Origin: PVC group bacterium
GTDB lineage: Bacteria > Auribacterota > Erginobacteria > Erginobacterales > Erginobacteraceae
Direction: 5' to 3'
DNA: 32,571 bases
Assembly (NCBI GenBank): GCA_043804695.1
Contig: JAZDIV010000141.1
Coordinates: 1 to 32,571 of the forward strand
In this document: one piece after another, positions 3,248 through 31,836 of the stretch
How the letters are laid out: each line of letters starts with the position of its first letter
How positions within the stretch are numbered: position 1 is the stretch's first letter
Translations under genes and position numbers: made by a program
The notes under the pieces: generated by a model
Told to the model about the DNA's origin: nothing
Database searches by the model: none
Seen by the model: the letters and a program-made list of their open reading frames with translations, nothing else

Positions 3248-3272
3248 GTAGGGGCGATCATTGTGATCGCCC
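3248..3272 (+). repeat. GTAG-type REP-like palindrome
   Basis: GTAG followed by GGGCGATCA-TTG-TGATCGCCC, the GTAG-plus-GC-hairpin layout of REP sequences. Confidence 0.6.
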
Positions 3273-3400
3273 GCATTCCGCAGATGGATTACTGTTTCGG
3301 AATTTTTAGTCTGAGGCGTATCTTACTCTCGTGGACAATAAATCAAGATCGACGCGCGGTATGACCGATGGCGTGAGCGCGGGATTAAAGCAGTATATGC

Positions 3401-3529
3401 GTATCAGAGAATCAGGGGACCAGTGGGAAGGGTATCAGAATATCAGGGGATCAGGTTAGGGAACCGGCCTCGCCGGATAACCTGATGTCCTGATATTCTA
3501 CCCACTGATATGCTGATAATCTGATATCC
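3401..3529. repeat. Inverted pair of degenerate 8-bp tandem arrays (ATCAG core)
   Basis: Left arm gtatcagagaatcag...gaatatcaggggatcaggtta; right arm taacctgatgtcctgatattc...ctgatatcc. Confidence 0.8.
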
Positions 3530-3613
3530 ACTATGGGGATAATCATCTTATCCATTCAATCCCCGGACATTGTCCAAAAAATATTTAGCGCCGCAATCGC
3601 TGATGTATAGGCT

Positions 3614-4009
3614 GGCAGGGGACGGGTTGATGGTCGCCTCCCCGCGGCTTGCCGCGGGGGGGAGGAAAGTCCGAACTCCAGAGGGCAGGGCGCCCCGATA
3701 ACATCGGGGGACCGGGGGGAGCGATCCCTCCGGGACGGAAAGTGCCACAGAAAACAGACCGCCGATGGCCCCGGTGAATAGGGGCACAGGCAACGGTGAA
3801 AAGGTGCGGTAAGAGCGCACCGGGCCGAGAGTAATCGAGGCCGCATGACAAACCCCGCCCGGAGCAAGGCCGAATAGGGGCCGAGGTGTCGCCCGCACCG
3901 ATCGAGGCCCGGGTAGGCCGCATTGAGCCCGAGGGCAACCGAGGGCCCAGACAGATGACCATCGCCCCGGAACCGGGGTACAGAATTCGGCTTATTCCCG
4001 TCCCCTGCC
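3614..4009 (+). ncRNA. rnpB: RNase P RNA, class A
   Basis: Conserved GGAGGAAAGTCC, GGAAAGTGCCACAGAAA, AACGGTGAAA..GTGCGGTAAGAGCGCAC, GGAGCAAGGCC and ACAGAA..CGGCTTA motifs. P1 helix GGCAGGGGACGGG/CCCGTCCCCTGCC followed by a T-run. Confidence 0.97.
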
Positions 4010-4265
4010 GGCCGTTTTTTTCCTTCGTCCCGGTCTAGGGGCCATCCCCGGATTTTTCTCCTTTTTCCCGTTTCCCCCCCTTTTTTTTTCGGCTTCTCAT
4101 TCTGCCGCTCCCGCCCGGATGCCGCATCCTCTGCCGAAAACCTCGTAGATTTAGGCCATAACTATCACCGGCGCTTATAGTTGAGCGCACGTTCCCTCCG
4201 CCGGCCGCGATCGGCCGGCCTCTTTTGACGCGTGAGTTGCAGATAAAATAATTGTGATTTTTCTG

Positions 4266-4338
4266 TTGACAGAATTTTTACGGTGGTAGTATATTGTACC
4301 GAAGTGGTGAATAGTGGGTAGAAGTGGTGAATAGGGAG
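4266..4338 (+). promoter_or_regulatory. dcw promoter with MraZ-binding direct repeats
   Basis: TTGACA (4266), 18-bp spacer, TATATT (4290). GTGG boxes at 10-bp spacing (4304, 4314, 4324, degenerate 4334) match the known MraZ operator architecture. Confidence 0.8.
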
Positions 4339-4344
4339 AATCTC

Positions 4345-4767
4345 ATGTTCCTGGGAGAATACAGGCATTCGGTAGACAGCAAGGGGCGCCTCTTCATACC
4401 GGCCCGGTTCCGCAGCCGGGAGAACCAGCGCTTCTTTGTCAACCTGGGTCTTGACGGATGCCTCTCCGTCTTCACCGAGGAAGGATGGAACGCCCAGCAG
4501 GACCGGATCAATGAGATGGACATGATGAAGAAGGCCGCCCGGGATTTTAAACGGATCTATTTTTCCAAGGCGGCGGAGACGGTCTGTGACAAGCAGGGGA
4601 GGATAAACCTTCCGGATCCTCTTTTGAAGGAAGCGCATCTCGACCGGGAAGTGGTCGTGGCCGGCGTTTCGGATCATTTTGAAATCTGGGATACGGCACG
4701 CTGGGAAGAGTACCAGCGTGAGTCAAGCAAACGCTATGAAGAGATAGCTGAAAACCTGGCGCAATGA
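4345..4767 (+). CDS. mraZ: Transcriptional regulator MraZ
   Basis: MFLGEYRHSVDSKGR and DKQGRI motifs. ATG 4345 with a GGGAG RBS is preferred over GTG 4324. Confidence 0.96.
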   Translation: MFLGEYRHSVDSKGRLFIPARFRSRENQRFFVNLGLDGCLSVFTEEGWNAQQDRINEMDMMKKAARDFKRIYFSKAAETVCDKQGRINLPDPLLKEAHLDREVVVAGVSDHFEIWDTARWEEYQRESSKRYEEIAENLAQ

Positions 4768-4778
4768 GGGGACAGCCT

Positions 4779-4901
4779 ATGAAGAGCAGCTCGAGAACGC
4801 TGATCGATCTGTTGAGCATGAACAAGAGCCTGAAGCCCGCCCGGAAGCTCAGTGTCCGGTTGAGGATTCCGAAGAAGAAACGGCGTGGGTTCGGACGGTA
4901 A
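4779..4901 (+). CDS. Putative 40-aa basic small protein
   Basis: GAGGGG RBS 7 nt before the ATG. Translation MKSSSRTLIDLLSMNKSLKPARKLSVRLRIPKKKRRGFGR fills the mraZ-rsmH gap. Confidence 0.4.
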   Translation: MKSSSRTLIDLLSMNKSLKPARKLSVRLRIPKKKRRGFGR

Positions 4902-9438: not shown

Positions 9439-9470
9439 GGAGAAGGGAGAGCGGAGTTTCGGAATTTTAT

Positions 9471-9499
9471 TAAATTAGCGAGCAAAGCGAGCTAATTTA
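9471..9499 (+). repeat. Start-codon-proximal hairpin, copy before murF
   Basis: TAAATTAGC-gagcaaagcga-GCTAATTTA, ending 2 nt before the ATG. Confidence 0.8.
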
Positions 9500-9501
9500 T
9501 A

Positions 9502-10962
9502 ATGGAACCGCAGACACTGCAAACCATCGTCGCCTGGTCGGGCGGGACACTGCTCAGCGGCGACCCGGCGGCGCGGACAACCGGCATCAGCATCGACAGC
9601 CGGTCCGTGCGGCCGGGAGAGCTTTTTCTGGCTCTCCCCGGAAAGAGATGCGATGGGCACGACTATGCCGCCGAGGCACTGTCCCGGCAGGCGGCCGGCG
9701 TGATTATCTCCCGGCCGGTCCCGGAAATCGGCCGGTGGCCGGCGGGAGGGGCCCTGATCCGGACGGCGGATTCTTTCCGGGCCCTGGCCGGCCTAGCCCG
9801 GGGGTACCGGGCTCTTTTTGACCTGACCGCCGTCGCCGTGACCGGCAGCAACGGCAAGACCACCACCAAGGACCTGATCGCCCGGCTCCTGAACGCCCGG
9901 ATGGAGACACTCGCCGCCCCGGCCAGTTATAACAATTTGGTCGGGCTCTCGTTGACTATTCTTCGATTGGAAAAGCGCCACCGGGCGGTCGTCTTTGAAC
10001 TGGGGATGAACCGGCCAGGAGAGATCCGGGAACTGGCGGACATCTGCCGTCCCGGGGCCGGGGTGATTACCAATGTCGGCCTGGCCCATATCGGTTATTT
10101 TGGGAGCGTCGATGAGATCGCTGCCGAGAAGGAGGCATTGCTGGGGGGATTGACGGGTGAAAAAGCGGCTTTTCTGAATGTCGACGACCGCCGGGTGGCC
10201 GCCATGGCCGGCTCCGCCCGGGGGCCGGTGATCGGGTTCGGATTCGGTCCCTCCGCCCGGATCCGGGCTTCCGATCCGCAACTGCTGCCGGACGGGGCCC
10301 GGTTCAGAGTCGCCCTCTCCGGAGGAGAATTGACGATCGATTCGCCGCTCCCCGGGCGCCACAATCTCTATAACCTTCTGGCCGCCCTGGCGGTCGCCGA
10401 CCATTGCGGCGTCCCTCCGGAGACGATACGGGAAACAGTCCGGACGGCCGCCCTCCCTCCCCGGCGCCTGGAGAAGGTCAGGGTCGGGGAGGCAACGGTC
10501 ATCAACGACGCCTATAACGCCAACCCCGCCTCGATGCGGGCCGCTCTCGAGGCCTGGCTGGGGATGGAAAGCGGCGGGCGCCGAATAATGGTCAGCGGCG
10601 ACATGAATGAACTGGGGACCTTTTCCGTTGCCGAGCATCGGGCCTGGGGAGCCGTCCTGGGCGGCGCCGGGCTGGATCGCCTGATTTTTGTCGGCCCCCG
10701 CTCGCGGGATGCCGCCGCCGCCGCCGTCGATCGGGGATTCCCCGGGAAGAAGGTGCACGCCGTCGGGGACTGTCGGGCGGCGGCGGCGGTGCTCCGTGAT
10801 GTCATTCGCCCGCGAGACAGCATCCTCATCAAGGGCTCCCGGGTGATGGAGATGGAGGAGATCGTGGAGGAGTTAACAAACAATACCAAAAGCAAAGCGC
10901 AAAATGCTGATGTCGATGCGGCCTGTACGGCATCTGAAAGGAATAATGGAGTACTGGAGTAA
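9502..10962 (+). CDS. murF: UDP-MurNAc-pentapeptide synthetase
   Basis: DSR, TGSNGKTTTK, ELGMN, DAYNANP.SM and KGSR motifs. The C-terminal tail runs into a repeat. Confidence 0.96.
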   Translation: MEPQTLQTIVAWSGGTLLSGDPAARTTGISIDSRSVRPGELFLALPGKRCDGHDYAAEALSRQAAGVIISRPVPEIGRWPAGGALIRTADSFRALAGLARGYRALFDLTAVAVTGSNGKTTTKDLIARLLNARMETLAAPASYNNLVGLSLTILRLEKRHRAVVFELGMNRPGEIRELADICRPGAGVITNVGLAHIGYFGSVDEIAAEKEALLGGLTGEKAAFLNVDDRRVAAMAGSARGPVIGFGFGPSARIRASDPQLLPDGARFRVALSGGELTIDSPLPGRHNLYNLLAALAVADHCGVPPETIRETVRTAALPPRRLEKVRVGEATVINDAYNANPASMRAALEAWLGMESGGRRIMVSGDMNELGTFSVAEHRAWGAVLGGAGLDRLIFVGPRSRDAAAAAVDRGFPGKKVHAVGDCRAAAAVLRDVIRPRDSILIKGSRVMEMEEIVEELTNNTKSKAQNADVDAACTASERNNGVLE

Positions 10963-11028
10963 TGGAGTGATGGAAACCGGCCGGGTGCCTGGGCAGTCTC
11001 TCCCAATACTCCAGTACTCCAATACTCC
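10940..11028. repeat. Inverted pair of 8-bp tandem arrays (GGAGTAAT / ATACTCCA)
   Basis: ggaataat ggagtact ggagtaat ggagtgat gg ... ccaatact ccagtact ccaatact cc. Confidence 0.85.
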
Positions 11029-11101: not shown

Positions 11102-12205
11102 ATGCTTTACTACATCTTTTACCCGCTCCGGAATGTCTGGTTCGGGTTCAACGTCTTCAAGTACATAACCTTCCGGGCGGCGGCGGCGGCGGTCACCGCC
11201 TTCCTCCTCACTATCGTCTTCGGCAAACCGATCATTGCCCGGCTCCGGGAACTGAAGGTCGGGGAGAAGATCCGGAGCGGCCGTTATTATGAAACCCTTC
11301 ATCAGTACCAAAAAGGGAAAGAAGGGACTCCCACCATGGGAGGCCTGATCATCCTCCTTTCAGTGCTGCTGGCCACTCTTTTCTGGGCCCGCCTGGCAAC
11401 GTTGCAGGTGCAGGTGATAGTGGTCTCTTCCCTCTGGCTGGGTCTGATCGGTTTTATCGACGACTGGATTAAGCTGCGGGGCCTCGGCCGTCGGGGGCTC
11501 CCGGGAAAAGTCAAGCTGGCCGGCCAGGTGCTGCTGGGGCTGGGGATCGCCCTTTTCCTCCTCCATCATCCGGAGACCTCTTCGTATGCCGCCCACCTCC
11601 GGATCCCGTTCTACAAGCACGTTGTCATCCAGGACCTGGGGATCTTTTCCATTTTCTTCACGATCCTGGTTCTGGTCGGGAGCACCAACGCGGTCAATCT
11701 GACCGACGGCCTGGACGGCCTGGCGATCGGGTGCCTGTCCATCGCCGCTCTCGCCTTTGCCGCGCTGTCCTATGTTATCGGGCACGCCCGGTTCGCCGAG
11801 TATCTCCAGGCGTTCTACATCCCCGGAGCGGGAGAACTGGCGGTCTTCTGCGCCGCCCTCGGGGGCGCCGGGCTCGGTTTTCTCTGGTTCAACGCTTACC
11901 CGGCCCAGGTCTTCATGGGCGATACCGGGGCGCTGGCCTGCGGGGGAGCCATCGGGACGGTGGCGGTTTTGATCAAGAAGGAGCTCTTTTTAATTTTAAT
12001 CGGAGGCGTCTTCGTCATCGAGGCCGCCTCGGTTATCCTCCAGGTGATTTCCTTCAAGCTGTGGGGCCGCCGGATCTTCAAGATGGCCCCGCTCCATCAT
12101 CACTTTGAGCTGCAGAATATCCCGGAGAGCAAGATCACCGTCCGCTTCTGGATCTGCGCGGTCGTCTTTGCCTTGATCGGGCTGGGAGCTCTGAAGGTGC
12201 AATGA
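11102..12205 (+). CDS. mraY: Phospho-MurNAc-pentapeptide transferase
   Basis: K.GTPTMGG, GFIDD, NAVNLTDGLDGL, VFMGDTG and APLHHHFE motifs. Confidence 0.98.
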   Translation: MLYYIFYPLRNVWFGFNVFKYITFRAAAAAVTAFLLTIVFGKPIIARLRELKVGEKIRSGRYYETLHQYQKGKEGTPTMGGLIILLSVLLATLFWARLATLQVQVIVVSSLWLGLIGFIDDWIKLRGLGRRGLPGKVKLAGQVLLGLGIALFLLHHPETSSYAAHLRIPFYKHVVIQDLGIFSIFFTILVLVGSTNAVNLTDGLDGLAIGCLSIAALAFAALSYVIGHARFAEYLQAFYIPGAGELAVFCAALGGAGLGFLWFNAYPAQVFMGDTGALACGGAIGTVAVLIKKELFLILIGGVFVIEAASVILQVISFKLWGRRIFKMAPLHHHFELQNIPESKITVRFWICAVVFALIGLGALKVQ

Positions 12206-12264
12206 ACCGGGGAGAACAGAGTGCGCCGTCTTTTTAATTTTCCAGAAGCAAGCCGGCAGGTGAG

Positions 12265-13656: not shown

Positions 13657-13686
13657 ACGGCTCAAACGGTTAAAACGGCTCATACT
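13615..13686 (+). repeat. Eight degenerate copies of a 9-bp unit (GYTCAAACG) spanning the murD stop
   Basis: gttcaggcc gttcaaacg gctcaaacg gttaaaaca gcttaaacg gctcaaacg gttaaaacg gctcatact. Confidence 0.85.
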
Positions 13687-13725
13687 GAATACAACAGGGA
13701 ATCCGTAACCAAAGGAGGGAGCGGG

Positions 13726-14160: not shown

Positions 14161-14166
14161 CTGGAC

Positions 14167-14381: not shown

Positions 14382-14499
14382 AAGATTTTTTCGAGTAAGC
14401 TCTATCTGTCTCCCGCCGCCGGAGAAAATGGTCGAAAGAGCAGGGGAGGCATAGATGACAGGTCGGGCGTGAGCATCTCCGCCCCGAGTATTGATTGTT

Positions 14500-20285: not shown

Positions 20286-20287
20286 AA

Positions 20288-20353: not shown

Positions 20354-20358
20354 TAAGA

Positions 20359-21585: not shown

Positions 21586-21588
21586 TCT

Positions 21589-21753
21589 ACTGCGTTGGAA
21601 TTTCAATAATTATTAGCCACCAAGACACAAAGACACCAAGAAAAAAAAGGGTAAAATATTCACCTTATTCGATTTTCCTTAGTGCCTTGGTGTCTTGATG
21701 GCGGAAAGGTGCGCCGAAGGCGCTAATTTATCATATTTTTCCTCAGGAAAAAT
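21589..21753. repeat. Composite junction: left-end motif, inverted 9-bp arrays, half hairpin, TTTTTCC/GGAAAAA hairpin
   Basis: actgcgttggaatttcaataat; gccaccaagacacaaagacaccaag ... cttagtgccttggtgtcttgatggc (21/25 inverted match); gcgcc-gaa-ggcgctaatttat; atttttcc-tca-ggaaaaat. Confidence 0.85.
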
Positions 21754-21768
21754 TGGCGGAGAAGACAC

Positions 21769-22899
21769 ATGAGCAAGGGAAAAACTGAAAAGAAAATTTC
21801 CCTCTGGGGGGTCGGCCACTGGGGCGTGCGGGTGGCCGGGTCGATGCCGGATGAGTATCGTCGCCGGCTGAAAATCGTGGCGGTCGATTCGGATGTCCAG
21901 TCCCTGATCTGTTCGCCGGTCGCTGACAAGCTAACCCTCGGATGGGAGGAAGCCGCCGGGCGGTCCGCCGGCGGTGATGGCGGCAAGGGCGAAGAAGCAT
22001 TCCGGGAGAGTGCGTCGGCCATCAAGGAGAAACTGGCTGATTGCCGGGTGGCCCTGATCGTCGGCGGACTGGGAGGGGGAACGGGGAGCAGCCTGATCCC
22101 GGCGCTCTGCGGCACCGCGCGCGGTTTGAAGATTCTGACCCTGGCCCTGGTGACGCGCCCGTTTGCCTTTGAGGGGAAAAAGAAGAACCTGCTCTTCCAG
22201 CGGGCGCGGGAGGGGATTGAAAAAAGCGGGGCGGGCCTGGCCTGTTTTTCCCTGGATCGCCTGGTCGGCAAGGCTGAAGACGATACCCCTCACGACGAGG
22301 TTTTCCAACGCTGCGACCGGATATTGCAGGAAGCGGTCGAGTGCGTGATCGACTGCCTGTCGCCATCCCCCGGGTCGGGATGCGACGGCGCCGCGCTGGA
22401 AAATATTTTGACCGCGCCCGGAGAAACCGTGATGGGCGCGTATGAGACGGCGAAGCCGGAGAATCTGGTGGCGGCGGCGAAGGGCGCGTTCTCGGCGCTT
22501 TCTCTCCGACCCGCCGAACTGGGCCGGGCGCGGGGATTCTTGATTCAGATTGAGGCTGCCGGGCCGATTCCCTTCCGCCATGTCGAGCAGGCGGTCGGAG
22601 CGGTCTCCGGGCGGCTGGCCGAGGACGCGGACCTCCTCTACGCCGTCACCCGAAAAAAGGAAGCGGGGGACAAGATCATCGTCCGCATCATCGCCTTCGG
22701 GATTCCGGAGAGGGGAGGGGAGAAGATCGCGTCCGCGATCCCGGTCACCATGACGACCGACGTCCGCCCGGCTGTTCAGACGGAGATCGACTTCAAGAAG
22801 CTGACCCGGGGGGTGTTTGCCGACACCGGCCCCACGCTTCTCGACGGGGAGGACCTGGACATCCCGACATTCGTCAGGAAAGGGGTCGAGCTGGAATAA
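21769..22899 (+). CDS. ftsZ: Divergent cell division protein FtsZ
   Basis: GLGGGTGS tubulin signature, VTRPF.FEG, C-terminal GEDLDIPTFVR, position after ftsA. The T1 and T7 loops are non-canonical. Confidence 0.9.
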   Translation: MSKGKTEKKISLWGVGHWGVRVAGSMPDEYRRRLKIVAVDSDVQSLICSPVADKLTLGWEEAAGRSAGGDGGKGEEAFRESASAIKEKLADCRVALIVGGLGGGTGSSLIPALCGTARGLKILTLALVTRPFAFEGKKKNLLFQRAREGIEKSGAGLACFSLDRLVGKAEDDTPHDEVFQRCDRILQEAVECVIDCLSPSPGSGCDGAALENILTAPGETVMGAYETAKPENLVAAAKGAFSALSLRPAELGRARGFLIQIEAAGPIPFRHVEQAVGAVSGRLAEDADLLYAVTRKKEAGDKIIVRIIAFGIPERGGEKIASAIPVTMTTDVRPAVQTEIDFKKLTRGVFADTGPTLLDGEDLDIPTFVRKGVELE

Positions 22900-22901
22900 T
22901 T

Positions 22902-23125
22902 TCCTATTTCGGAATGTCAATAATCGGGAAATCCGATTATTGACATTCCGAAATAGGAGAAAAAGCAACTAAAGTAAAAAAATATTAGCTCTGGCTTTAT
23001 TATAGTAAGGGCTTACCGTTACGGACTGATCAGTTGGACGTGAACTGATCCTATGGTTGTTATCAATCAATTTTATATTCTAAAAAATGAAATTTTTCTA
23101 AATTAGCGCCGGAGGCGCTAATTTA
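22902..23125 (+). mobile_element. ~225-bp MITE-like element, copy 1
   Basis: Perfect 26-bp inverted repeat (22902-22958), AT-rich core, and terminal hairpin TAAATTAGCGCC-GGA-GGCGCTAATTTA; homologous to 28041-28270. Mobility is inferred. Confidence 0.6.
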
Positions 23126-23847
23126 TGATTTTTTTCATCAGGATCGCCAAGTTACTGCTGGGGCTCTTCCTCATCCCCGCCTGCGTGTCGGCCACGGTGG
23201 TCTTCGGCCGGGAGATCTTCCCGTCCCTGAAGACCGAGATCTGGTTCTTCGCCGGGCTCTTCAGTTACCTGCTGCTGCTGGCCGTTTTCCAGCAGCCGAT
23301 CCGGACCTATATTTTCGGGCACGAACTGACCCACGTTCTCTGGGTCTGGCTCTTCGGCGGACGGGTCAAGGGCTTCCGGGCGGCGGCAACGGGCGGGGAA
23401 GTCCGCACGTCCAAATCGAATTTTCTCATCTTTCTGGCCCCGTATTTTTTCCCCCTCTACAGCGCGCTGGCCATCGCCGGCTACGGTCTCCTGACCGTTT
23501 TTTTCCAGCTGCCGCCGGTCGCGATGCGGATTCTCAGTTACCTGCTTGGTTTTACCTGGGCGTTTCACTTCACCTTGACCCTGTACGTGCTCATTCAGGG
23601 ACAGCCGGATGTTTGGGCCGCCGGCCGGATTTTTTCCTTCCCTTTTATATATCTCGTGAATGTGGTGGTCCTGGCATCGCTGATTATCTTCGTCACGCCC
23701 CGTCTCTCCTCCGGGACATACTTCTCCCGCCTCTGGGAAAAAGCGTGTCTCGACTACCGGTATCTCTGGACGGCCGGCCCCGGGATCTGCGAGGAGAACT
23801 ACCGCGCCTGCCGGGATAAAGTAGCCGCCCTCGTTGCCGGAAGGTGA
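23125..23847 (+). CDS. Membrane protein with HExxH motif (M50/M50B-like metallopeptidase)
   Basis: Several TM segments; FGHELTH...LFGG.V..F...GGEV...LAPYFFP pattern. Confidence 0.7.
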   Translation: MIFFIRIAKLLLGLFLIPACVSATVVFGREIFPSLKTEIWFFAGLFSYLLLLAVFQQPIRTYIFGHELTHVLWVWLFGGRVKGFRAAATGGEVRTSKSNFLIFLAPYFFPLYSALAIAGYGLLTVFFQLPPVAMRILSYLLGFTWAFHFTLTLYVLIQGQPDVWAAGRIFSFPFIYLVNVVVLASLIIFVTPRLSSGTYFSRLWEKACLDYRYLWTAGPGICEENYRACRDKVAALVAGR

Positions 23848-23986
23848 GCAAAAGCGCCTTCCCGGTTGCCGTCTTTGAACAGTCCCCCCGAAGAGCGGAA
23901 TATCTCTCCTTCCGGGCGCCCGCCGGCCGGGGATACCGGGCAGAAGGGGTGCCGGGCGGGAGGAGAATGCCCGGTGAAGTAAAGTC

Positions 23987-24016
23987 TTGAAATTTTCCCG
24001 GCCGGTCGGGTATCAT
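23987..24016 (+). promoter_or_regulatory. Candidate sigma70 promoter
   Basis: TTGAAA, 18-bp spacer, TATCAT, upstream of the GGAGG RBS and ATG 24069. Confidence 0.4.
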
Positions 24017-24068
24017 ACCATTAAGCAGTTCTTGGAAAAAAATATCAATCGGAGGAGACAGAATCGCC

Positions 24069-24641
24069 ATGAAGAAAAAAGTGACGGCCGGCGCGGTGCT
24101 TTTCCTGGGGGTTGTCTTCATTCTGGCTGTTCCCGCCCGGGGGAGAGATCTCTTTAACATCCTGCGAGTCCGGACCATACCCAACCCGGTGATCGGTGTT
24201 TTTCCGGGAGACGAGGCGCTGGAGGTCACCTTCACGCTTCGCTCTGAACGATGGATCCCGGCGGGGTGGAGCCTCCGGTATTATGATGATTCCCGACGGT
24301 GGCTGGGCACCCAGACCACGGCCTATTTCAGTTCCTCGCAGAACAACCCCTATCTCGTCAGCAAGGGCAGGCTTAAAGGGGGAAATGTCTATGTCGCCCT
24401 CTTCCCGCTCCGTGCGGATGCTCCCTACCTGGTCGTGGCCCTGGGCGACGGATTGGAACAGAAGGCGATTCTCTTTCCGTACACCGATCTCCTTCAGGAT
24501 TTTTCCGTGCCGGTAAAAAGGCTGAACGATGAGATTTCCCGCTCGGACTATGTGTTTATTGAAAAGGAAGAGGATGAAGTGGACATACTGATTGTCAGCG
24601 AGCAATCGCCCGCCGGAATGGCAGGCAAGACCGGGGAATAG
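24069..24641 (+). CDS. Hypothetical secreted protein (190 aa)
   Basis: GGAGG RBS and a typical signal peptide (MKKKVTAGAVLFLGVVFILAVPARG). Confidence 0.75.
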   Translation: MKKKVTAGAVLFLGVVFILAVPARGRDLFNILRVRTIPNPVIGVFPGDEALEVTFTLRSERWIPAGWSLRYYDDSRRWLGTQTTAYFSSSQNNPYLVSKGRLKGGNVYVALFPLRADAPYLVVALGDGLEQKAILFPYTDLLQDFSVPVKRLNDEISRSDYVFIEKEEDEVDILIVSEQSPAGMAGKTGE

Positions 24642-24719
24642 GGGCTGAACTTCAGCGAAAAGGTTGCTGCCCGGGCTTGTTTCCGGTCTCCTCGGGACTA
24701 TACGTTTTACGGCTATTAA

Positions 24720-24887
24720 AGGGGGCGAGGTAGGGAGAAAAAACTGAACGTCCAACGCCGAACGTTCAACGTCGAACATCGAACGTCACCGGGGCGCGGG
24801 ACTAATTTTCTTTCTCTGTGTTCTCCGTGGTTCAAAGAGGGGGCGAGGTAGAGGGAACTCTTGCGTATTTTGCGCTTTTTTGCGGCT
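24720..24887. repeat. Stacked 7-bp and 9-bp arrays bracketed by a 14-bp direct repeat
   Basis: AGGGGGCGAGGTAG at 24720 and 24838; (SAACGTC)x6 at 24746-24787; ctctgtgttctccgtggttc; ttgcgtattttgcgcttttttgcggct. Confidence 0.85.
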
Positions 24888-24893
24888 GCTGCC

Positions 24894-26738
24894 ATGATGG
24901 CTTTTATCGAGGCAATCAAAGAGCGGATCCTGATCGGCGACGGCGCCATGGGGACGCTGCTCCTCTCTAAGGGGATACGCCCCCAGCAGAGTTTCGAATC
25001 CCTCTGCCTGACCGAGCCGGCGGAGATAAAAGCGGTCCATCAGGAGTATATCGCCGCCGGGGCCGACCTGATTGAGACCAACACCTTCGGGGCCAACCGA
25101 TTCCGTCTGCGACCCGCGGGGTATGAACGGCAGGCGGCGCGGATCAATCAGGCGGCCGCGGCCCTGGCCCGGGACGCCGCCGGTGATGCTGTTTTCGTGG
25201 CTGGAGCGGTGGGAATGATCCCCACGCCGGACCGCGAGGCGGCCGGTCAGCGGCCTTCCGAGGGAGGGGAACTCTTCGAGGCCTATCGGGAGCAGATCGC
25301 GGCTCTCGCCGGAGGCGGCGTCGACCTCATCCTCCTGGAGACATTTGAAGAGTGGGAGAATCTCGATCTCGCCATCCGGGCCGCCCGGGAGGTTACCGAT
25401 CTCCCCGTCATCGCCCAGATGGCCTTATCCAACCGCGGCCTCTGCATCTTCGGCCGCATCGCGGAGATCTACTGCCGGCAGGCGCTCGCTGCCGGGGCGT
25501 CTGTCTTCGGGAGCAACTGCGGCGGGGGCTTTTCCTCGGTCCGGGAGGTCCTGAAAGGCGCGGCGGGCGTTGAAGGAGCTCTGCTGTCCGCTTTCCCCAA
25601 CGCCGGTATCCCGCAGATGATCCAGGGAAGGATCATTTATCCGGCTGCTCCGGAGTATTTCGCCGAAAAATGTCTGGAGCTTCTCCCGCTCGGCGTCCGT
25701 CTGATCGGCGGCTGCTGCGGGACCACCCCCCGGCACATCCGTGCTCTCCGCCAGGCGCTGGGCCGGCTCTCCGCCGAACCGGCGGCCCGCCGGGTTGCCC
25801 CGCCGCCCCGGATTGCCGTCGTTCCCCGATCGGAAAAGTCCGTGGAGGGAGGTTTTCTCTCCAGCCTCCGGCGGGACCGGCTCCCGATCATTGTCGAGAT
25901 CGACCCCCCCGCTTCCCCCGACCTGGAGAGGGTGGTCCAGGGCGCCCTGGCGGTCAAAAACGCCGGCGCCGACGCGGTCTCGATGGCGGACAATCCTCTG
26001 GCCGCCCTCAGGGTCAGCTCGATCTGCGCCGGGGGGGTTGTCCGGCGCCGAGCGGGCATCCAGGTCATCCCCCACCTGACCACCCGGGATCATAATATCC
26101 TCGGCCTCCAGTCCATCCTCCTGGGGGCCCAGGTGGAGGGACTGGAGGCCGTCCTGGCCGTTACCGGCGATCCGGCCGGGAAGAGCGACCAGCCCGGGAA
26201 CCGGGGGATATTCACCATCAACAGCATCCACCTGGTGGGCTTGATCGATCAGCTGAACCGGGGCCACATGCTCTCGGGCAAAACAATCGCCCATCCGACC
26301 AGCCTCTCGATCGGGGTCGCCTTTAACGCCAACGCCCCCAACCTGGAGGCGGAAGTGCTCAAGCTCCGCAGGAAGGTCGACAGCGGCGCCCGCTTTGCGC
26401 TGACCCAGCCCGTCTTTACCGCCGATCTGGTCCGGAAAGTCCTGGCGGCCTGTTCCGGCATCGACATCAAGATCTTCGTCGGGATCTATCCCCTCCTCTC
26501 GCTCCGGAACGCCGAGTTCATGGAGAACGAGGTCCCCGGGATCGCCATCCCCCGGGCGGTGAAAGAGAGGATCGCCGGCGCCGGGGACGGCCCCGCCCAG
26601 CGCCGGGCCGGCCTGGAGCTCGCCGCCGGTCTGATCGATGAGATCAGGCCGAAGATCGACGGGCTTTATATCATCAGCCCCCTCAATAAATGGGCCGTCC
26701 CTCTCGAGCTGGTTCGGCGCGTGCGCTCGCAGGAATAG
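24894..26738 (+). CDS. Bifunctional homocysteine S-methyltransferase / methylenetetrahydrofolate reductase (YitJ-like)
   Basis: DGAMGT, AGAD.IETNTFGAN, G.NC, PNAG.P and IGGCCGTTP in the HMT domain; VEIDPP, AD.P.A, H.T.RD.N, AVTGDP, TQPVF and NEVPGI in the MTHFR domain. Confidence 0.93.
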   Translation: MMAFIEAIKERILIGDGAMGTLLLSKGIRPQQSFESLCLTEPAEIKAVHQEYIAAGADLIETNTFGANRFRLRPAGYERQAARINQAAAALARDAAGDAVFVAGAVGMIPTPDREAAGQRPSEGGELFEAYREQIAALAGGGVDLILLETFEEWENLDLAIRAAREVTDLPVIAQMALSNRGLCIFGRIAEIYCRQALAAGASVFGSNCGGGFSSVREVLKGAAGVEGALLSAFPNAGIPQMIQGRIIYPAAPEYFAEKCLELLPLGVRLIGGCCGTTPRHIRALRQALGRLSAEPAARRVAPPPRIAVVPRSEKSVEGGFLSSLRRDRLPIIVEIDPPASPDLERVVQGALAVKNAGADAVSMADNPLAALRVSSICAGGVVRRRAGIQVIPHLTTRDHNILGLQSILLGAQVEGLEAVLAVTGDPAGKSDQPGNRGIFTINSIHLVGLIDQLNRGHMLSGKTIAHPTSLSIGVAFNANAPNLEAEVLKLRRKVDSGARFALTQPVFTADLVRKVLAACSGIDIKIFVGIYPLLSLRNAEFMENEVPGIAIPRAVKERIAGAGDGPAQRRAGLELAAGLIDEIRPKIDGLYIISPLNKWAVPLELVRRVRSQE

Positions 26739-26818
26739 AAGCCCTTCCCGTTCCGGGCATTCCTGCCCGCCGATTGCCGCCGCCGCATTCCTTCTTGATG
26801 CGGGACGTATGCACAATC

Positions 26819-26889
26819 AGCCGATTTCCGCCTGCCGGCAGGTGGAAATCGGTTAAAATTCTTGACTGAGCATCTCAGCATAGTAGAAT
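26819..26889 (+). promoter_or_regulatory. Long hairpin (CCTGCCGGCAGG core) followed by a candidate gap promoter
   Basis: ccgatttccgcctgccggcaggtggaaatcgg; TTGACT (26862), 16-bp spacer, TAGAAT (26884). Confidence 0.5.
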
Positions 26890-26944
26890 TCGCCCCAATC
26901 AGGAACCGCGCCCCACCGGGCACACGAATTAACCGGAGGATATC

Positions 26945-27952
26945 ATGAGTGTAAAGATCGGAATCAACGGGTTCGGGCGGATCGGCCGCCAGATTTTCAG
27001 AATTCTCAACGCGGATCCCGCTTTCGAGGTGGCCGCCATCAACGACCTGACCGATGCCTCCACCCTGGCCCATCTGCTCAAGTACGATTCCGTCCACGGG
27101 AAATTCCCGGGGACGATCAAGGTCTCCGGCGGCAGCCTGGTGGTCAACGGGAAGGAGACAAAGGTTCTCTCCGTTAAAGATCCGGCCGAACTGCCCTGGA
27201 AAGAAGAGGGGGTGGATATCGTGGTCGAGGCGACCGGCGTTTTCAGGAATGTCACCGACCTGAAAAAGCATATCGAGGCCGGCGCCAAAAAAGTTCTCCT
27301 GACGGTCCCCCCCAAGAAAGATCCGGACGGCGAGGTCGAGCTGATCGTGATCGGTGTCAACGACAGGAAACTAACCCCGGCGATGCGGTTTATATCCAAC
27401 GCCAGCTGCACCACCAACTGCCTGGCTCCGATTGCCAAGGTTCTTAACGACAGCTTCGGGATCGAGAGAGGGCTGATGACGACGGTCCATTCCTACACCA
27501 ACGATCAGAGGATACTGGATCTCCCCCACTCGGACCTCCGCCGCGCCCGGGCGGCGGCCGTCAGCATGATCCCCACCACCACCGGCGCCGCCAAGGCGGT
27601 CGGCAAGGTGCTCCCCGAGCTGAAAGGCAGGCTGGACGGTTACGCCCTCCGGGTCCCGACCCCGGACGGCTCCCTGGTCGACCTGACCGTAGAGCTGTCA
27701 AGGGACGCCACGGTTGACGAGGTCAATGCCGCCATCGAGAAAGCGGCATCCGGGGAGATGAAGGGGATTCTGGAGTACGAGCGGGATCCCATCGTCTCGA
27801 TCGATGTCGTCGGGAACCCCGCCTCGTCCGTATTCGACTCCCTGGCGACGATGGAGGTCGGGAAGAGGATGATCAAGGTTCTCGCCTGGTACGACAACGA
27901 ATGGGGATATTCCAACCGCTGCGTCGACCTGCTCAGGTTGATGGCAAAATAA
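26945..27952 (+). CDS. gap: Type I glyceraldehyde-3-phosphate dehydrogenase
   Basis: INGFGRIGR, SNASCTTNCLAP, IPTTTGAAKA and WYDNEWGYS motifs; GGAGG RBS. Confidence 0.99.
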   Translation: MSVKIGINGFGRIGRQIFRILNADPAFEVAAINDLTDASTLAHLLKYDSVHGKFPGTIKVSGGSLVVNGKETKVLSVKDPAELPWKEEGVDIVVEATGVFRNVTDLKKHIEAGAKKVLLTVPPKKDPDGEVELIVIGVNDRKLTPAMRFISNASCTTNCLAPIAKVLNDSFGIERGLMTTVHSYTNDQRILDLPHSDLRRARAAAVSMIPTTTGAAKAVGKVLPELKGRLDGYALRVPTPDGSLVDLTVELSRDATVDEVNAAIEKAASGEMKGILEYERDPIVSIDVVGNPASSVFDSLATMEVGKRMIKVLAWYDNEWGYSNRCVDLLRLMAK

Positions 27953-28012
27953 AAGCCGGTGTTACAGGGATGCCGATTCTGAAAATCTCATATGGGGGTT
28001 CTGACAGCAGAT

Positions 28013-28270
28013 AAATAACAAATCACAAGCACCAAATAACACTGTTTCGGAATTTCAATAATCGGAAAAATCCGATTATTGAACTCCCGAAACAGACGAA
28101 AAAGCAATCAAGATGAGATTAAGCCATTTTTGGATTATGATAAAATGGGTTACTGTTGCTTATTAAGTAGGTGCATACCAACTAATTCCTGGGGCATCAT
28201 CAGTCTGGTACAACTTTTAAAGGTTCAATTAACTCCAATTTACTAAATTAGCGCCGGAGGCGCTAATTTA
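28013..28270 (+). mobile_element. Truncated 7-bp array followed by MITE-like element copy 2
   Basis: aaataac aaatcac aagcacc aaataac; 25-bp inverted repeat with 2 mismatches (28042-28095); terminal hairpin identical to 23099-23125. Confidence 0.6.
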
Positions 28271-28272
28271 TA

Positions 28273-29499
28273 ATGGCTAAACTGGGGATAGAAGATCTCG
28301 ATCTGAAGGGAAAGCGGGTCCTGGTCAGGGTTGACTTCAATGTCCCGCTCGATGGGGACCGCCGGATTACCGACGACACCCGGATCCGGGCCGCCCTCCC
28401 CACGATCAGGTACGTGATCGAGCATGGCGGGAAGGCGATTCTCGTCTCTCACCTCGGCCGTCCGAAAGGGAAGAGGGATCCGGCGTACAGTCTGGGCCCG
28501 GTCGCGGTCCGTCTCTTCGAACTGCTTGATCAACGGGTGGTCTTCGTCGATGACTGCATCGGGCCCGGGGCGAAAGAGGCGGTGAAGAAGATGAAGGACG
28601 GGGACGTCGTCCTCCTCGAGAACCTCCGGTTTCATCCCGGCGAGGAGGCGGGAGACGACGCCTTTGCGCGCGAGCTGGCCGCTCTGGCCGATCTCTACAT
28701 CGACGACGCCTTCGGCACCGCCCACCGCGCCCACGCCTCCATGGTCGGGGTGACCGCCTACCTCGACCGCAGCGCCGCCGGTTTCCTCCTTCAGAAAGAG
28801 ATCGACTACCTGGGAAAAGCTCTCGCGGATCCGGAGCGGCCCTTCATCGCCATCCTCGGCGGAGCCAAGGTCTCCGACAAGATCAAGGTGATCGAGAACC
28901 TGGTCCGCAGCGTCGATTCGATCCTGATCGGGGGCGCCATGGCCTACACGTTCATGAAGGCGATCGGGGTTCCGGTCGGGGCCTCCCGGGTCGAGGAGAT
29001 CATCGAGGACAAGAAAGGAATGGCCATTGATGTCGCCGGACTGGTCCGGGGCATCCTGGAAAAAGCCGCCGCCCGCGGGGTCGAGGTCCTTCTTCCCATC
29101 GACCATGTCGTGGCGGATCGGTTTTCTGAAGACGCCGCGGTCAGGGTCGTCCCCCGGGACGGGATCGCCGCCGGCTGGATGGGAATGGACATCGGCCCCA
29201 GGACCGGCCGGCTGTACGGCGATAAGATCGGGAAGGCCGGGACCGTCGTCTGGAACGGCCCGATGGGGGTGTTCGAGATGAAGCCCTTTGCCGCGGGAAC
29301 GCTGGCCGTTGCCCGGGCCCTGGCCGAATCCTCCGCCCTCTCGATCATCGGCGGGGGCGATTCCGTGGCCGCCGTCAACCGGAGCGGCCTGGCCGGCCGG
29401 ATCACCCACATCTCGACCGGGGGCGGGGCCTCGCTGGAGTTCCTGGAAGGGAAAGTCCTCCCCGGCATCGCCGCCCTGACTGATGGTGTCGCGTCTTGA
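28273..29499 (+). CDS. pgk: Phosphoglycerate kinase
   Basis: [47 protein letters not shown] and STGGGASLE motifs. Confidence 0.99.
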
Positions 29500-29649
29500 C
29501 ATTGGACATTATCATTTTTTGCAGGCATGTTATCTAATTTGCGCCAGGTTAGAAAAATAGTGTATTAGCAGTTTTCTGTTTTTATGATAATGTCCAATGT
29601 CAAGACGCGACACCTATAAGGATAATGTCCAATGTCAAGACGCGACACC
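29485..29649. repeat. Perfect 31-bp inverted repeat with a tandem duplicate of the right arm
   Basis: GGTGTCGCGTCTTGACATTGGACATTATCAT (29485-29515), its exact inverse (29584-29614), and a further 29-bp copy (29621-29649). Confidence 0.92.
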
Positions 29650-30402
29650 AAGCCTTTAATCGCCGGCAACTGGAAACTTCACAAGACCATCCCCGAGGCG
29701 CTGGAACTGGCCGGGGCGTTGAAACGGGACCTCGCCGCCTGTACCGGCGCCGACCTGCTCGTCTGCCCGCCTTTCGTCGACCTGAAGCCGGTCGCCGACC
29801 TGCTTCAGGGAAGCTCCATCGCCCTTGGCGGCCAGGACCTTTTCTGGGAAGACGCCGGTGCCTTCACGGGGGCGATTTCCGGGCCGATGCTCAGGTCGGC
29901 GGGATGCAGCCACGTCATCATCGGCCATTCGGAAAGGAGAGAGCATTTCGGAGACACCGATCAGATCGTGAATAAAAAAATCAGGGCGGCGATCACCTCC
30001 GCTCTCACCCCGATCCTCTGCGTGGGGGAGTCGCTGGAGAAGCGGGAGCAGAAAGTGACCAAGGAGTTTTTACGCAAGCAGCTGGGGCTGGATATCCGGG
30101 GGATCGGCCCGGAGTGGATAGCCCGGATAATCGTTGCCTATGAGCCGATCTGGGCGATCGGGACCGGGATGACGGCCACCCCCCGGCAGGCCGGGGAAAC
30201 CCACCGTTTCATCCGGGAACTCTTCGCCGAACATTACAACGATTCGATCGCGAACAACATCCGGATTCTTTACGGGGGAAGCGTCAAGCCGGATAACGCC
30301 CGGGTTCTGATCGCCGAGGCGGACGTGGACGGCTTCCTGGTTGGCGGCGCCAGCCTGGATGCCGCTGCCTTCGTCGCCATTGCCCGCTGCAGCACAATGT
30401 GA
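29632..30402 (+). CDS. tpiA: Triosephosphate isomerase
   Basis: [29 protein letters not shown] and DG.LVGGASL motifs. Confidence 0.99.
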
Positions 30403-30520
30403 TCTTATTTTTCCTTCGGAAAAATAAGAATGGGCAAGCAATGACCCGATATTGCAGGGATATTTTAAAGTAACTTCATGTAATTCATATAAATTTGCGA
30501 GCGCAGCGAGCTAATTTATA
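30403..30520. repeat. Two hairpins in the tpiA-secG junction, same pair as at ftsQ-ftsA
   Basis: TCTTATTTTTCC-ttc-GGAAAAATAAGA (30403-30429) and TATAAATTtGC-gagcgcagcga-GCTAATTTATA (30488-30520). Confidence 0.85.
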
Positions 30521-30534
30521 AGGAGATGTGATTA

Positions 30535-30918
30535 ATGCTATTCATCATTTTAATCGTCCTCTATGTTGTCATCTGCATCGCGCTGATTGTGATTGTTCTT
30601 CTGCAATCCGGCCGGGGCAGCGGCCTGGCCGGCATCTTCGGCTCCGGCGGCGGCGGCCAGACCATCTTCGGGGCCCGGACCGGCGATGTCCTGACCAAAT
30701 CCACGACCGTCCTGGCGGTCTGTTTCATGGTTTTTTCTCTGGTGCTCGCCGTTCTCTCCGCCCGGAAAACATCTTCGCTGACCAGGGAGATCGAAGCGGT
30801 GGGCCTGGAGATGCCCGCCTTCCCGGAAGCCGTTCCGGCCGGTGAAGGAGAGACCGGGGAAGCACCGGCAGCGGCGGGAGAGACACCCGGGGAAACCAGT
30901 GCTCCGGCCGGTTTTTGA
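30535..30918 (+). CDS. secG: Preprotein translocase subunit SecG
   Basis: LI.IVLLQ.G.G.GL...FG.G....FG...L.K.T pattern; located after tpiA; AGGAG RBS. Confidence 0.95.
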   Translation: MLFIILIVLYVVICIALIVIVLLQSGRGSGLAGIFGSGGGGQTIFGARTGDVLTKSTTVLAVCFMVFSLVLAVLSARKTSSLTREIEAVGLEMPAFPEAVPAGEGETGEAPAAAGETPGETSAPAGF

Positions 30919-30951
30919 TTGAACGTTCAACGTTGAACGTTCAACGTTGAA
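30919..30951. repeat. Self-palindromic 7/14-bp array between convergent genes
   Basis: TTGAACGTTCAACG TTGAACGTTCAACG TTGAA. Confidence 0.9.
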
Positions 30952-31739
30952 TCCTCACCGTTTAATTTTTCCCATTCCCCCAGCCGTCCGGAGATGAACC
31001 GGATGATCCGTTCCTGTGCCCCCCGCCCGCTGCCGGTCACGGGTATCGGGTCCCCGAAGGTTATGTGAACCGGGATCCGGGGGGAAATTTTCCCCAGGTC
31101 CTTCACCCACTTCCCCGTCCCCCAGGCGTCGGTTTTGATGGCGATGGGGATCACCGGAGCTCCGGCTCGACGGGCCAGTTTCACCCCCAGGGAATTAAAC
31201 TCTCCGGGAGAGAATACGGGGGACCGGGTGGTCTGGGGGAAGAGGATGATCGATGTCCCGCGGCGCAGGCGTTTCTCTCCTTCCCGGAGTACGATCTCCA
31301 GATCCTGCCGGGGGTTTCTCCGGGAGACGACGATCGGATTCCGGCTGGACAGAACGCAGCCGAAGAAGGGGTAGGCGAGCAGGCTCTCCTTGACGACAAA
31401 CGTGACATCCCGGTGCGGCTGGATGATCCCGGGGAGGAGAAACGTCTCCAGGATGCTCATGTGGTTGCCCGCCAGGACGCACGGTGAAGGGAGGTTGATG
31501 AAAGAGGCGGTGTTTTCGATGCTCACCGTGATGCCGACCGACTCCAGCGCGGCCAGCGTCAGCCGGCTGGACTGGATCCACTGCTCGCCGGTGTATTCTC
31601 CCCGCCGGGCTGTGCGTCCGGCCGACAAGACGATCTTCAGCAGTTTCAGGTAGAAAAACGCCTCCGGGGCCGCCCGGGCGGCCCGGCCGATCTTTCTTGC
31701 CGGCGAATGATAATCGCTGATAATCGGGGCGGAGTTCAT
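30927..31739 (-). CDS. Lysophospholipid acyltransferase (PlsC family)
   Basis: NHMSILE (HX4D/E), FVVK.SL, FPQTTR (FPEGTR-like) and PVIPIA motifs. Confidence 0.88.
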   Translation of the reverse strand: MNSAPIISDYHSPARKIGRAARAAPEAFFYLKLLKIVLSAGRTARRGEYTGEQWIQSSRLTLAALESVGITVSIENTASFINLPSPCVLAGNHMSILETFLLPGIIQPHRDVTFVVKESLLAYPFFGCVLSSRNPIVVSRRNPRQDLEIVLREGEKRLRRGTSIILFPQTTRSPVFSPGEFNSLGVKLARRAGAPVIPIAIKTDAWGTGKWVKDLGKISPRIPVHITFGDPIPVTGSGRGAQERIIRFISGRLGEWEKLNGEDSTLNVQR

Positions 31740-31754
31740 GAGGACGTATTCATA

Positions 31755-31836
31755 ATCCGCCGGGACGCAAAGAGCTCCAAGGAGAACTTTACCGGGTGCT
31801 GGCAGTCTTCGCGTTCTTGGCGCCTCTGCGGTTCAA
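31755..31836. repeat. Degenerate inverted 9-bp-unit repeat spanning the lgt stop
   Basis: atccgccgggacgcaaagagctccaag matches the inverse of cttcgcgttcttggcgcctctgcggtt at about 19/27. Confidence 0.55.

Follow-up and report, generated by a model that had tools for sequence, protein, structure and literature searches.

Several families of small hairpin and short-repeat modules recur at the gene junctions of a PVC group bacterium

We analyzed a contig of a PVC group bacterium (JAZDIV010000141.1, assembly GCA_043804695.1) whose gene junctions carry small hairpins and arrays of short repeats. The window under study is this whole contig (32,571 nt), one of the 155 that make up a 2.97-Mb genome with 57.8% G+C and a stated completeness of 88%. 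It holds a division and cell-wall cluster in the order mraZ-rsmH-ftsL-ftsI-murE-murF-mraY-murD-LysM-ftsW-murG-murC-ddl-ftsQ-ftsA-ftsZ, in which the genes from rsmH to ftsZ were assigned by NCBIfam and mraZ (4324-4767) by our own gene calling. Downstream of ftsZ lie two hypothetical genes, a metH/metF fusion and gap-pgk-tpi-secG, followed by plsC and lgt on the minus strand. A tRNA-Val gene is found at 2427-2498 and a class A RNase P RNA at 3618-4009 (229.8 bits, Rfam). Because this last stretch is the RNase P RNA, the long minus-strand open reading frames (ORFs) over 3585-3962 are spurious. When the window was searched with the Rfam 15 covariance models, only the RNase P RNA and the tRNA scored, and two long hairpins stayed at chance level, far below the gathering scores. 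The intergenic stretches stand out as AT-rich islands in a background of 60-70% G+C. For comparison we used four relatives, here called G001, G004, G005 and G006, the present genome being G000. A search with FtsZ placed the congener G001 at 70% identity and the members of the family at 51-62%. Gene order is fully kept in the four relatives; the lengths of the junctions vary.

The original prediction held that about 18 junctions of this window carry structured inserts. Fifteen of the 18 indeed carry recurring modules and are listed below with their coordinates and strand. Among the others, site 26754 proved to be an ordinary terminator (hairpin 26820-26853, not a repeat), with a sigma-70-like promoter behind it that G001 has kept as well; site 31755 showed neither a repeat nor a fold (z +0.6), and the stretch 1-208 is weakly repeated (depth 5). 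As for structure, we folded 20 junction segments as DNA and compared each with 200 dinucleotide shuffles. For 14 of the 20 segments none of the 200 shuffles folded as well (z -4 to -13); the arrays at 13615, 18337 and 24720 are one-sided and are not hairpins.

3248-3275, unstranded: hairpin of the repetitive extragenic palindrome (REP) type with a GTAG start; z -5.1; many intergenic copies genome-wide.
3401-3530, unstranded: gene-less head-to-head array hairpin of ATCAG-type 7-8-nt units; z -8.1; arrays detected by Tandem Repeats Finder (TRF).
9456-9502, plus strand: minimal leader cassette, consisting of a 5' half-palindrome and a start hairpin (9471-9502) that ends at the murF ATG; weak fold, z -2.2, with 7 of 200 shuffles as good.
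10940-11028, unstranded: array hairpin of GGAGTAAT-type units; z -5.3; the final residues of murF and its stop codon lie in the left arm.
13615-13686, plus strand: six to seven direct 9-nt units, not a hairpin, encoding the MurD C-terminal tail and stop codon.
14166-14400, unstranded: stack of a small hairpin (14166-14192; z -4.9), an AAATCCT-type array hairpin (14190-14335; z -4.0), a two-stem core (14333-14358) and a further short-unit array.
18337-18492, plus strand: one-armed ATCAG array (18337-18392) without a fold (z +1.4), followed by direct TTAGGCACT-type arrays flanking a conserved core (18439-18470); no overall fold.
20287-20356, plus strand: stop-side AT-rich hairpin (20287-20314; z -5.8) and start hairpin (20325-20353; z -5.0), together filling the ftsQ-ftsA gap.
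21589-21760, plus strand: complete polar leader cassette before ftsZ, with a 5' module, a CACCAAGA array hairpin (21617-21700), a start hairpin (21709-21727) and a further AT-rich hairpin.
22902-23125, plus strand: leader cassette with a 26-bp perfect palindrome (22902-22958), a body and a start hairpin (23096-23125); z -13.
24745-24790, unstranded: array of 7-nt GAACGT-type units (site 24720), one arm only and not a hairpin; z -1.1.
28013-28273, plus strand: leader cassette before pgk, with a short array, a palindrome (28042-28095), a body and a start hairpin (28244-28273); z -10.
29485-29650, unstranded: three copies of a 27-31-nt repeat, one forward (29485-29515) and two inverted (29584-29614 and 29618-29650); z -11.
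30403-30534, plus strand: full stop-to-start cassette between tpi and secG, with an AT-rich hairpin (30403-30429; z -5.8), a body, a start hairpin (30490-30521) and then a Shine-Dalgarno sequence.
30919-30965, unstranded: array of 7-nt units between the convergent genes secG and plsC, encoding the PlsC tail; z -4.8; found at the same place in G001.

Several of these inserts reach into genes or recur in other settings. The array family of the 10940 hairpin is also found at gap-pgk in G001, and the MurF tail that lies within the hairpin is not conserved, MurF tails being unrelated among the relatives. The conserved core at 18439-18470 contains a motif with 41 genomic matches, of which one lies within a called gene. 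In the 22902 cassette, the 3' arm of the start hairpin reaches into the ATG of the following gene. GAACGT-type units flank the REP hairpin elsewhere in the genome, and the cassette at 30403 has the highest repeat depth in the window (87). The MurD C-terminal tail (13600-13656) is a 9-nt array here, and G001 has a different repetitive tail (Gly-Ser-Asn runs). We considered the LysM gene (13726-14160) as cargo of this 9-nt array and ruled it out, as all four relatives have the gene in this position.

The modules recur throughout the genome, and they do so outside genes. A blastn-short search of the window against its own genome returned 19 segments with at least three other genomic copies; all 19 lie at gene boundaries and none is mid-gene, as had been proposed. 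They represent at least five families, namely leader cassettes with their start hairpin, a stop-side AT-rich hairpin, head-to-head arrays, REP hairpins and a 27-nt inverted doublet. Genome-wide motif and repeat searches bore out that the inserts are copies of multi-copy, mostly gene-less families, and the genome holds dozens of repeat consensus sequences. Called coding sequence makes up 79.6% of the genome, and only 2-7% of the copies of the main motifs fall within called genes (the start-hairpin arm had 10 of its 339 matches there and the ATCAG array 7 of 154, against 287 of 568 for a G+C-rich control motif). Stacking of modules is common; true nesting, which had also been claimed, was seen only outside the window, at C127. 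Other very abundant repeats occur outside the window, among them a family with 157 counts of an 18-mer and a G+C-rich family with 137 counts.

The form of an intrinsic terminator (a G+C-rich stem followed by a T run) was found only in the non-repeat hairpin 26820-26853 and neither in the AT-rich nor in the array hairpins. Terminator-like sites number 33 against 20.6 expected, and few fall on modules. Promoter-like sites are likewise numerous (16 within 12000-31900 against 4.6 expected). A role of the modules as sigma-70 promoters was nevertheless rejected: the two best sites are native and non-repeat (23987 and 26862), and the others score 9/12 in AT-rich DNA. In agreement with the original prediction, none of the 30 ORFs scanned in the window matched a transposase or recombinase model of NCBIfam, 9 of the 30 having no match at all.

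We turned to the short-unit arrays. TRF detected 1274 short-period arrays in the genome, 861 of them outside genes. They include 150 inverted pairs of about 50 unit types, 104 of which have less than 150 nt between the arms, and the resulting hairpins have a mean RNA folding energy of about -45 kcal/mol over about 100 nt. Their distribution over co-directional, convergent and divergent gaps (83/10/5) can be set against that of all gaps (1679/206/202); this spread at about the background rate would fit random insertion followed by loss of harmful copies. Selection for RNA pairing was rejected as an explanation of the array hairpins, as the sense strand has no folding advantage (sense 38, antisense 40, of 83).

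The genome contains six good four-helix-bundle genes (TIGR02436/PF05635), of which one is interrupted by three stops, as well as a single GxxExxY gene (PDDEXK_3); the four-helix-bundle proteins match PF05635 and PDB entry 2gsc. All seven genes lie between inverted arrays of 7-9-nt units, so the link of such arrays to these two kinds of gene, which the original prediction had mentioned for other genomes, proved correct for this genome. By reading, three of the cargo units recur gene-less in the window: the unit of the 3401 array is that of a four-helix-bundle gene on C27, that of the 14190 array belongs to a four-helix-bundle gene on C83, and that of the 21617 array to the GxxExxY gene on C127. 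The arrangement is not confined to this lineage. We collected 80 four-helix-bundle loci from Acidobacteriota, Bacteroidota, Elusimicrobiota, Saccharibacteria, Gemmatimonadota, Chloroflexota, Planctomycetota, Nostoc, gamma-proteobacteria and others, by a search with one four-helix-bundle protein as query that reaches only its close relatives. At 49 of the 77 loci with both flanks, the upstream flank matched the reverse complement of the downstream flank (ungapped score of at least 14), compared to 7/77 for direct matches, 3/77 with the flank of another locus and 0/77 after shuffling. Tandem units of 7-8 nt make up the arms at these loci, with unit sequences that vary between loci. Pairs of loci at different junctions that share the same unit have a mean protein identity of 61.5% (n=91) versus 47.4% (n=1658), in a comparison that includes related, non-independent genomes and whose same-junction test is short-ranged; the higher identity indicates that the arms travel with the gene. 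Within the phylum sample, 23 of the 31 genomes contained four-helix-bundle genes; the number of matches per genome ranged from 0 to 18, and some were broken.

An arm-flanked gene of this kind is known from ribosomal RNA. The intervening sequence (IVS) in the 23S rRNA gene of Coxiella burnetii is termed selfish, carries an S23p ORF and has a 28-bp terminal stem that is cut by RNase III, while its means of movement is given as unknown (PMC4990558). The same source describes three to four tandem heptamers before the ORF, their number varying by strain (PMC4990558). The cassettes studied here share with the 23S IVS a four-helix-bundle (PF05635) ORF between inverted-repeat arms, an ORF that is optional in both. 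In contrast, they occupy operon spacers instead of rRNA helices, most copies are gene-less, and a PD-(D/E)XK gene can substitute for the four-helix-bundle gene; moreover, RNase III, which excises the rRNA elements, was not found in the order (14 genomes). The neighbours of every array copy in the window are two protein genes, or one protein gene and rnpB, and no copy is located in a 23S rRNA helix.

The remaining families resemble other known repeats. Mosaics of REP, REPIN and BIME (bacterial interspersed mosaic element) repeats accompanied by RAYT (Y1-HUH) genes are known from Proteobacteria. The hairpin at 3248 has the traits of a REP: it is a short palindrome headed by GTAG, it has many, mostly intergenic copies, and a Y1-HUH gene is flanked by the family. 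This gene, on C51, matches PF01797 (RAYT-like) and has GTAG-type hairpins upstream and around it, which differ in stem sequence from the 3248 copy. On C62 lies a second PF01797 gene (RAYT), which is flanked on either side by different REPs of its own. A RAYT-type Y1-HUH enzyme whose gene lies elsewhere in the genome is the probable mobiliser of the REP hairpins.

The repeats at 29485-29650, between pgk and tpi, form a second family of this kind. Their arms are 100% identical over 31 bp, and the inverted copies form a long hairpin. An inverted pair of the same 27-nt repeat brackets the gene C43:48435-49424, whose 330-residue product combines a PF01797 Y1 domain with a Bac_DnaA_C helix-turn-helix. 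This Y1-HUH enzyme with its DnaA-type helix-turn-helix probably moves the doublet that encloses its gene. The repeat has 12 exact genomic copies (identical over the 19 nt searched) and is nearly confined to the species, with 14 matches here versus 1, 2 and 1 in three of 30 relatives, the congener having a single copy. At the window site the repeats supply the stop codon of pgk (29497-29499) and the start codon of tpi (29632-29634): the last four residues and the stop of Pgk are repeat-encoded, and the first six residues of Tpi come from an inverted repeat. The native Pgk tail and the native Met-Arg-Lys-Pro start of Tpi are kept in the four relatives. Two essential genes have had a stop codon and a start codon replaced by the element. 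We ruled out a local inverted duplication of the tpi start, as the repeat is present at nine other places and around the Y1 gene. Two of the families, the REP hairpin with its RAYT gene and a REPIN-like doublet with its Y1-HUH gene, are of known kinds.

Taken together, the inserts are a variant, in crowded form, of REP/BIME-type mosaics and of rRNA intervening sequences. With REP, REPIN and BIME they share short multi-copy extragenic palindromes, inverted doublets, a Y1-HUH gene flanked by its own repeats and a mosaic of modules. They differ in that most modules have neither a GTAG head nor a RAYT gene beside them, in that the cassettes are strictly polar with respect to the next start codon, and in that one doublet overlaps and replaces coding ends.

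The polar leader cassettes end with a start hairpin next to the start codon. This start hairpin has 143 genomic copies, those in the window beginning at 9471, 20325, 21709, 23096, 28244 and 30490. It is built from conserved AT-rich outer arms and a G+C inner stem that is variable yet paired. Together with the stop-side AT-rich hairpin (at 20287 and 30403 in the window) it forms the two ends of cassettes with exchangeable middles. For the cassette with CACCAAGA units, 22 copies match the arm pattern, and by reading about two thirds of these show the full order of 5' half-palindrome, array hairpin, spacer, start hairpin and start codon. Like elements of the miniature inverted-repeat transposable type (MITEs), the leader cassettes have terminal inverted repeats, which are imperfect. 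Conservation of the start-hairpin arms ends at an outer A, followed by T and A in 65% and 60% of 284 flanks; this T/A could represent a TA duplication or a part of the repeat. We rejected the start hairpin as an operator of fixed geometry, since the distance between its half-sites varies (matches of 21-33 nt). A pattern search across genomes counted 130 start hairpins here, 77, 47, 7 and 3 in four relatives of the family and 0 in the other 26, with 0 everywhere for the reversed pattern. BOX, ERIC and Correia-type elements are mosaic or MITE repeats found in transcribed spacers. The modules described here are likewise small, modular, part of operon transcripts and able to fold into hairpins, but no sequence relation was seen, TA lies beside the ends in only 60-65%, and the 3' module abuts the start codon.

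We compared the junctions among the five genomes. Lengths, given in the order G000/G001/G004/G005/G006, were 63/389/12/6 nt for murE-murF, 330/47/118/58 nt for LysM-ftsW (330 nt in G000), 44/474/44/215 nt for ddl-ftsQ, 320/178/44/53/72 nt for gap-pgk and 132/7/46/93/67 nt for pgk-tpi. An all-against-all blastn search of the junctions of G000 and G001 gave eight matches between the same junctions, comprising native leaders, a promoter and the ftsQ-ftsA hairpin; the presence of this stop-side hairpin at the same junction of G001 indicates that it is old. Six G000 junctions gave matches to other junctions of G001; for example, tpi-secG matched ftsQ-ftsA (65 nt, 89%), murF-mraY matched gap-pgk, gap-pgk matched tpi-secG, murE-murF and hyp240-hyp190, and the 22902 cassette also matched other junctions. 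A junction at an ABC-transporter gene illustrates how occupants change. In G000 it is occupied by a four-helix-bundle cassette and in G001 by a hairpin that has no gene and consists of another unit type; G004 has another AT-rich insert, G003 about 880 nt with another ORF (C77, 987-1870) and G005 37 plain bases. The GxxExxY cassette is common to G000 and G001 and absent from G004, and one four-helix-bundle cassette is also common to G000 and G001. Fixed and vertically conserved junctions would have spoken against mobile elements; most sites are neither, and a few are both.

The order to which this genome belongs was also searched for RNase III. TIGR02191, the model for RNase III, had no match in this genome, and the RNase III domains PF14622 and PF00636 had none in any of the 14 genomes of the order (75-97% complete); among 17 genomes from the phylum's other orders, 15 had the domain. 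A search of the 14 genomes with the RNase III protein of a phylum-mate likewise returned nothing, the best local tblastn E-value being 0.11. If RNase III were lost from a whole order, this would be an unusual case among bacteria. In about 20 kb around ftsZ, the median number of long hairpins per 10 kb was 2.7 in 11 genomes without the gene and 0.5 in 12 genomes with it. Excision by RNase III as the process that renders the hairpins harmless here is undermined by these searches of the order. As a lead, we propose that without RNase III the stems in mRNA may stay uncut, and that selection against them would therefore be weak.

How might this population of modules have arisen? On balance we lean towards a mixture of selfish repeats, two families being partnered by Y1-HUH enzymes, one being derived from intervening sequences and the rest having no known mobiliser, all filtered by selection and tolerated in a lineage without RNase III. 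According to this explanation, small and mostly gene-less repeats of at least five families would build up in the transcribed spacers of the lineage. The head-to-head arrays would be gene-less derivatives of IVS-like cassettes that carry a four-helix-bundle or PD-(D/E)XK (GxxExxY) gene between like arms. The leader cassettes would be modular, polar, stop-to-start units, with an AT-rich hairpin or half-palindrome first and a hairpin with a G-N-A loop last. Copies would last only where they break no gene, that is in operon spacers and in the last few codons, and a copy at a boundary would survive if it provided a usable stop or start codon, or a purine run for ribosome binding. The apparent targeting of boundaries would then be explained by survival. 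The apparent lack of RNase III probably allows long double-stranded stems to stay uncut in polycistronic mRNA and so to accumulate.

A number of observations weigh against this explanation. Some copies are old and were inherited vertically in the genus, namely the hairpin at ftsQ-ftsA, the array between secG and plsC, and the cassettes on C143 and C127. No autonomous partner of the leader cassettes was found, and arm pairs 300-3000 nt apart were not in excess in an assembly that is 88% complete. The proposed link between repeats and enzymes is one of adjacency. With regard to RNase III, the ranges of hairpin density overlap (0-6.7 versus 0-3.0 per 10 kb), the link would stem from one evolutionary loss, and four-helix-bundle array cassettes also occur in phyla that have the enzyme. 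The gene calls are our own and crude, and distances to start codons therefore carry error. Finally, the 76 : 1 polarity of the start hairpin and its fixed place before the ATG suggest use in mRNA or insertion in one orientation.

This polarity is the strongest sign of something more than random insertion. The pgk/tpi insert, with its supply of a stop as well as a start codon, likewise goes beyond survivorship. We examined the 87 start hairpins that have a called start codon within 30 nt on one side only. On the sense strand the loop was G-N-A in 76, T-N-C in 1 and another sequence in 10; on the plus strand, genes disregarded, the split was 64 to 61. In 61 of the 87 the ATG follows 1-7 nt past the hairpin, so that the hairpin covers the usual position of the Shine-Dalgarno sequence. 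GGAGG or GAAGG was present in the loop and 3' arm of 31 of these 61 tight copies, and among the 26 copies with longer tails, 19 had a Shine-Dalgarno run after the hairpin. One might suppose that the leader cassettes, above all the G-N-A start hairpin, are working parts of the mRNA: a portable module for initiation or stabilization, which shows a purine-rich loop to the ribosome or caps a processed cistron at its 5' end, and which spread by usefulness and not only selfishly. The inner stem that varies while still paired, and the fixed order of modules, always directed toward the next gene, are consistent with this idea. G-N-A triloops give unusually stable DNA mini-hairpins, and the loop alone therefore cannot separate a role in DNA from one in RNA. 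Against this idea, a clear Shine-Dalgarno run is lacking from the loop in 30 of the 61 tight copies, the start-hairpin family is missing from 26 of 30 relatives, in which the same genes are expressed without it, G004 and G005 have short and plain sequences at these junctions, and the array hairpins, as stated, have no folding advantage on the sense strand (38 versus 40). We regard a working mRNA module as unlikely.

A bolder extension of the selfish-repeat explanation deserves mention, and we put it forward tentatively, as possible but improbable in its entirety. The cassettes of arms and gene might constitute one pan-bacterial mobile class that occupies both rRNA helices and operon junctions, with arms that are read by the encoded protein, and the heptamer hairpins might be decayed or trans-mobilised copies of it. 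In this order they would have expanded, together with the polar start-codon cassettes, after the loss of RNase III, and would now supply stop, start and ribosome-binding signals to essential operons.

Less probable than the mRNA module, and in our view distinctly so, is the central claim of the original prediction, that a single trans-acting system recognizes boundaries and places or removes all modules, the gene-less copies being empty cassette sites. All families do lie at boundaries, elements overlap stop and start codons, one and the same junction has different occupants in different genomes, and one architecture occurs in cargo-bearing and gene-less form. Yet the families number at least five, are unrelated and have different likely partners: no end sequence is common to them, two adjoin Y1 genes of their own, and the array hairpins occupy the gap classes at about the background rate. 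The same prediction had pointed to junctions that keep tight overlaps, and rightly so: ftsI/murE (-4) and murG/murC (-17) are overlapped in all four relatives and never filled in the five genomes compared. Selection explains such unfilled overlaps without targeting, and we favor the mixture of selfish repeats over the one-system claim.

Short-unit arrays as such have been noticed before. Convergent pairs of GGGAATC heptamers in Xanthomonas and GGGGA(T/C)T units in Nostoc were assigned no known role (PMC4692102), and paired tandem 7-9-nt sites of classes 1-3 in Geobacter metallireducens were read as IHF/HU sites (PMC2700814). These arrays resemble ours in being tandem 7-9-nt intergenic units, often in convergent opposite-strand pairs of variable spacing. 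The terms 'four helix' and 'intervening sequence' are absent from PMC2700814, as are 'intervening' and 'S23' from PMC4692102, and we found no literature that links the arrays to four-helix-bundle or GxxExxY genes, subscription journals being mostly outside our coverage. Here, in contrast, the link to a gene is direct, with about 50 unit types in one genome, and a four-helix-bundle locus of Lysobacterales carries an arm of the GGGAATC type. That the paired arrays are binding sites of a nucleoid or global regulator for chromosome or transcription control is hardly credible: in Geobacter metallireducens, pairs of sites on opposite strands, each with 3-5 tandem 7-9-nt units, were interpreted in this way for IHF/HU (PMC2700814) and tandem units would suit multimeric binders, but the unit types in this one genome are too diverse (about 50), the unit type follows the enclosed four-helix-bundle protein and not the host, occupancy differs between congeners, and the spacing of arms varies widely.

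If cassettes, arrays and intervening sequences do belong together, a single testable problem would replace three puzzles: why cyanobacteria, Xanthomonas and Geobacter carry their unexplained heptamer arrays, what the PF05635 family does, which is very large and named for an 'intervening-sequence protein', and how rRNA intervening sequences move. The present genome is a useful test case. It combines forms that carry a gene with forms that do not, and has a recently active 27-nt doublet that adjoins its candidate enzyme, and a hairpin module tied to start codons with a polarity of 76 : 1; and an order without detected RNase III can show how RNA-processing enzymes limit the spread of hairpins in operons. 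There is a practical side as well, as elements that rewrite last or first codons (murF, murD, pgk, tpi, plsC) mislead automatic gene calling and the prediction of start sites. The supply of codons to pgk and tpi, the start-codon polarity and the missing RNase III are points worth following.

Several further features of the window and the genome were noted along the way. The ftsW-murG spacer (15661-15832) has the same length in G000 and G001 (172 nt) and is 175 nt long in G005; a part of 59 nt shows 92% identity between the first two. This spacer does not belong to the repeats, and a small conserved ORF or a native RNA element may lie within it. The mraZ-rsmH spacer (4768-4884) is 117 nt long in three genomes and 122 nt in a fourth, and 140 nt across it are 88% identical between G000 and G001, which points either to a conserved native leader or to an rsmH start further upstream. 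A short leader of mixed G+C content before the metH/metF fusion (24843-24887) has six other genomic copies, 33 nt that are 97% conserved in G001 and no Rfam match. FtsZ itself (21769-22899) is divergent, scoring 136 bits against TIGR00065, for which the family cut-off is 295. The genome also encodes a single reverse transcriptase (RVT_1; G000:C23:30881-31513, E 2e-43).

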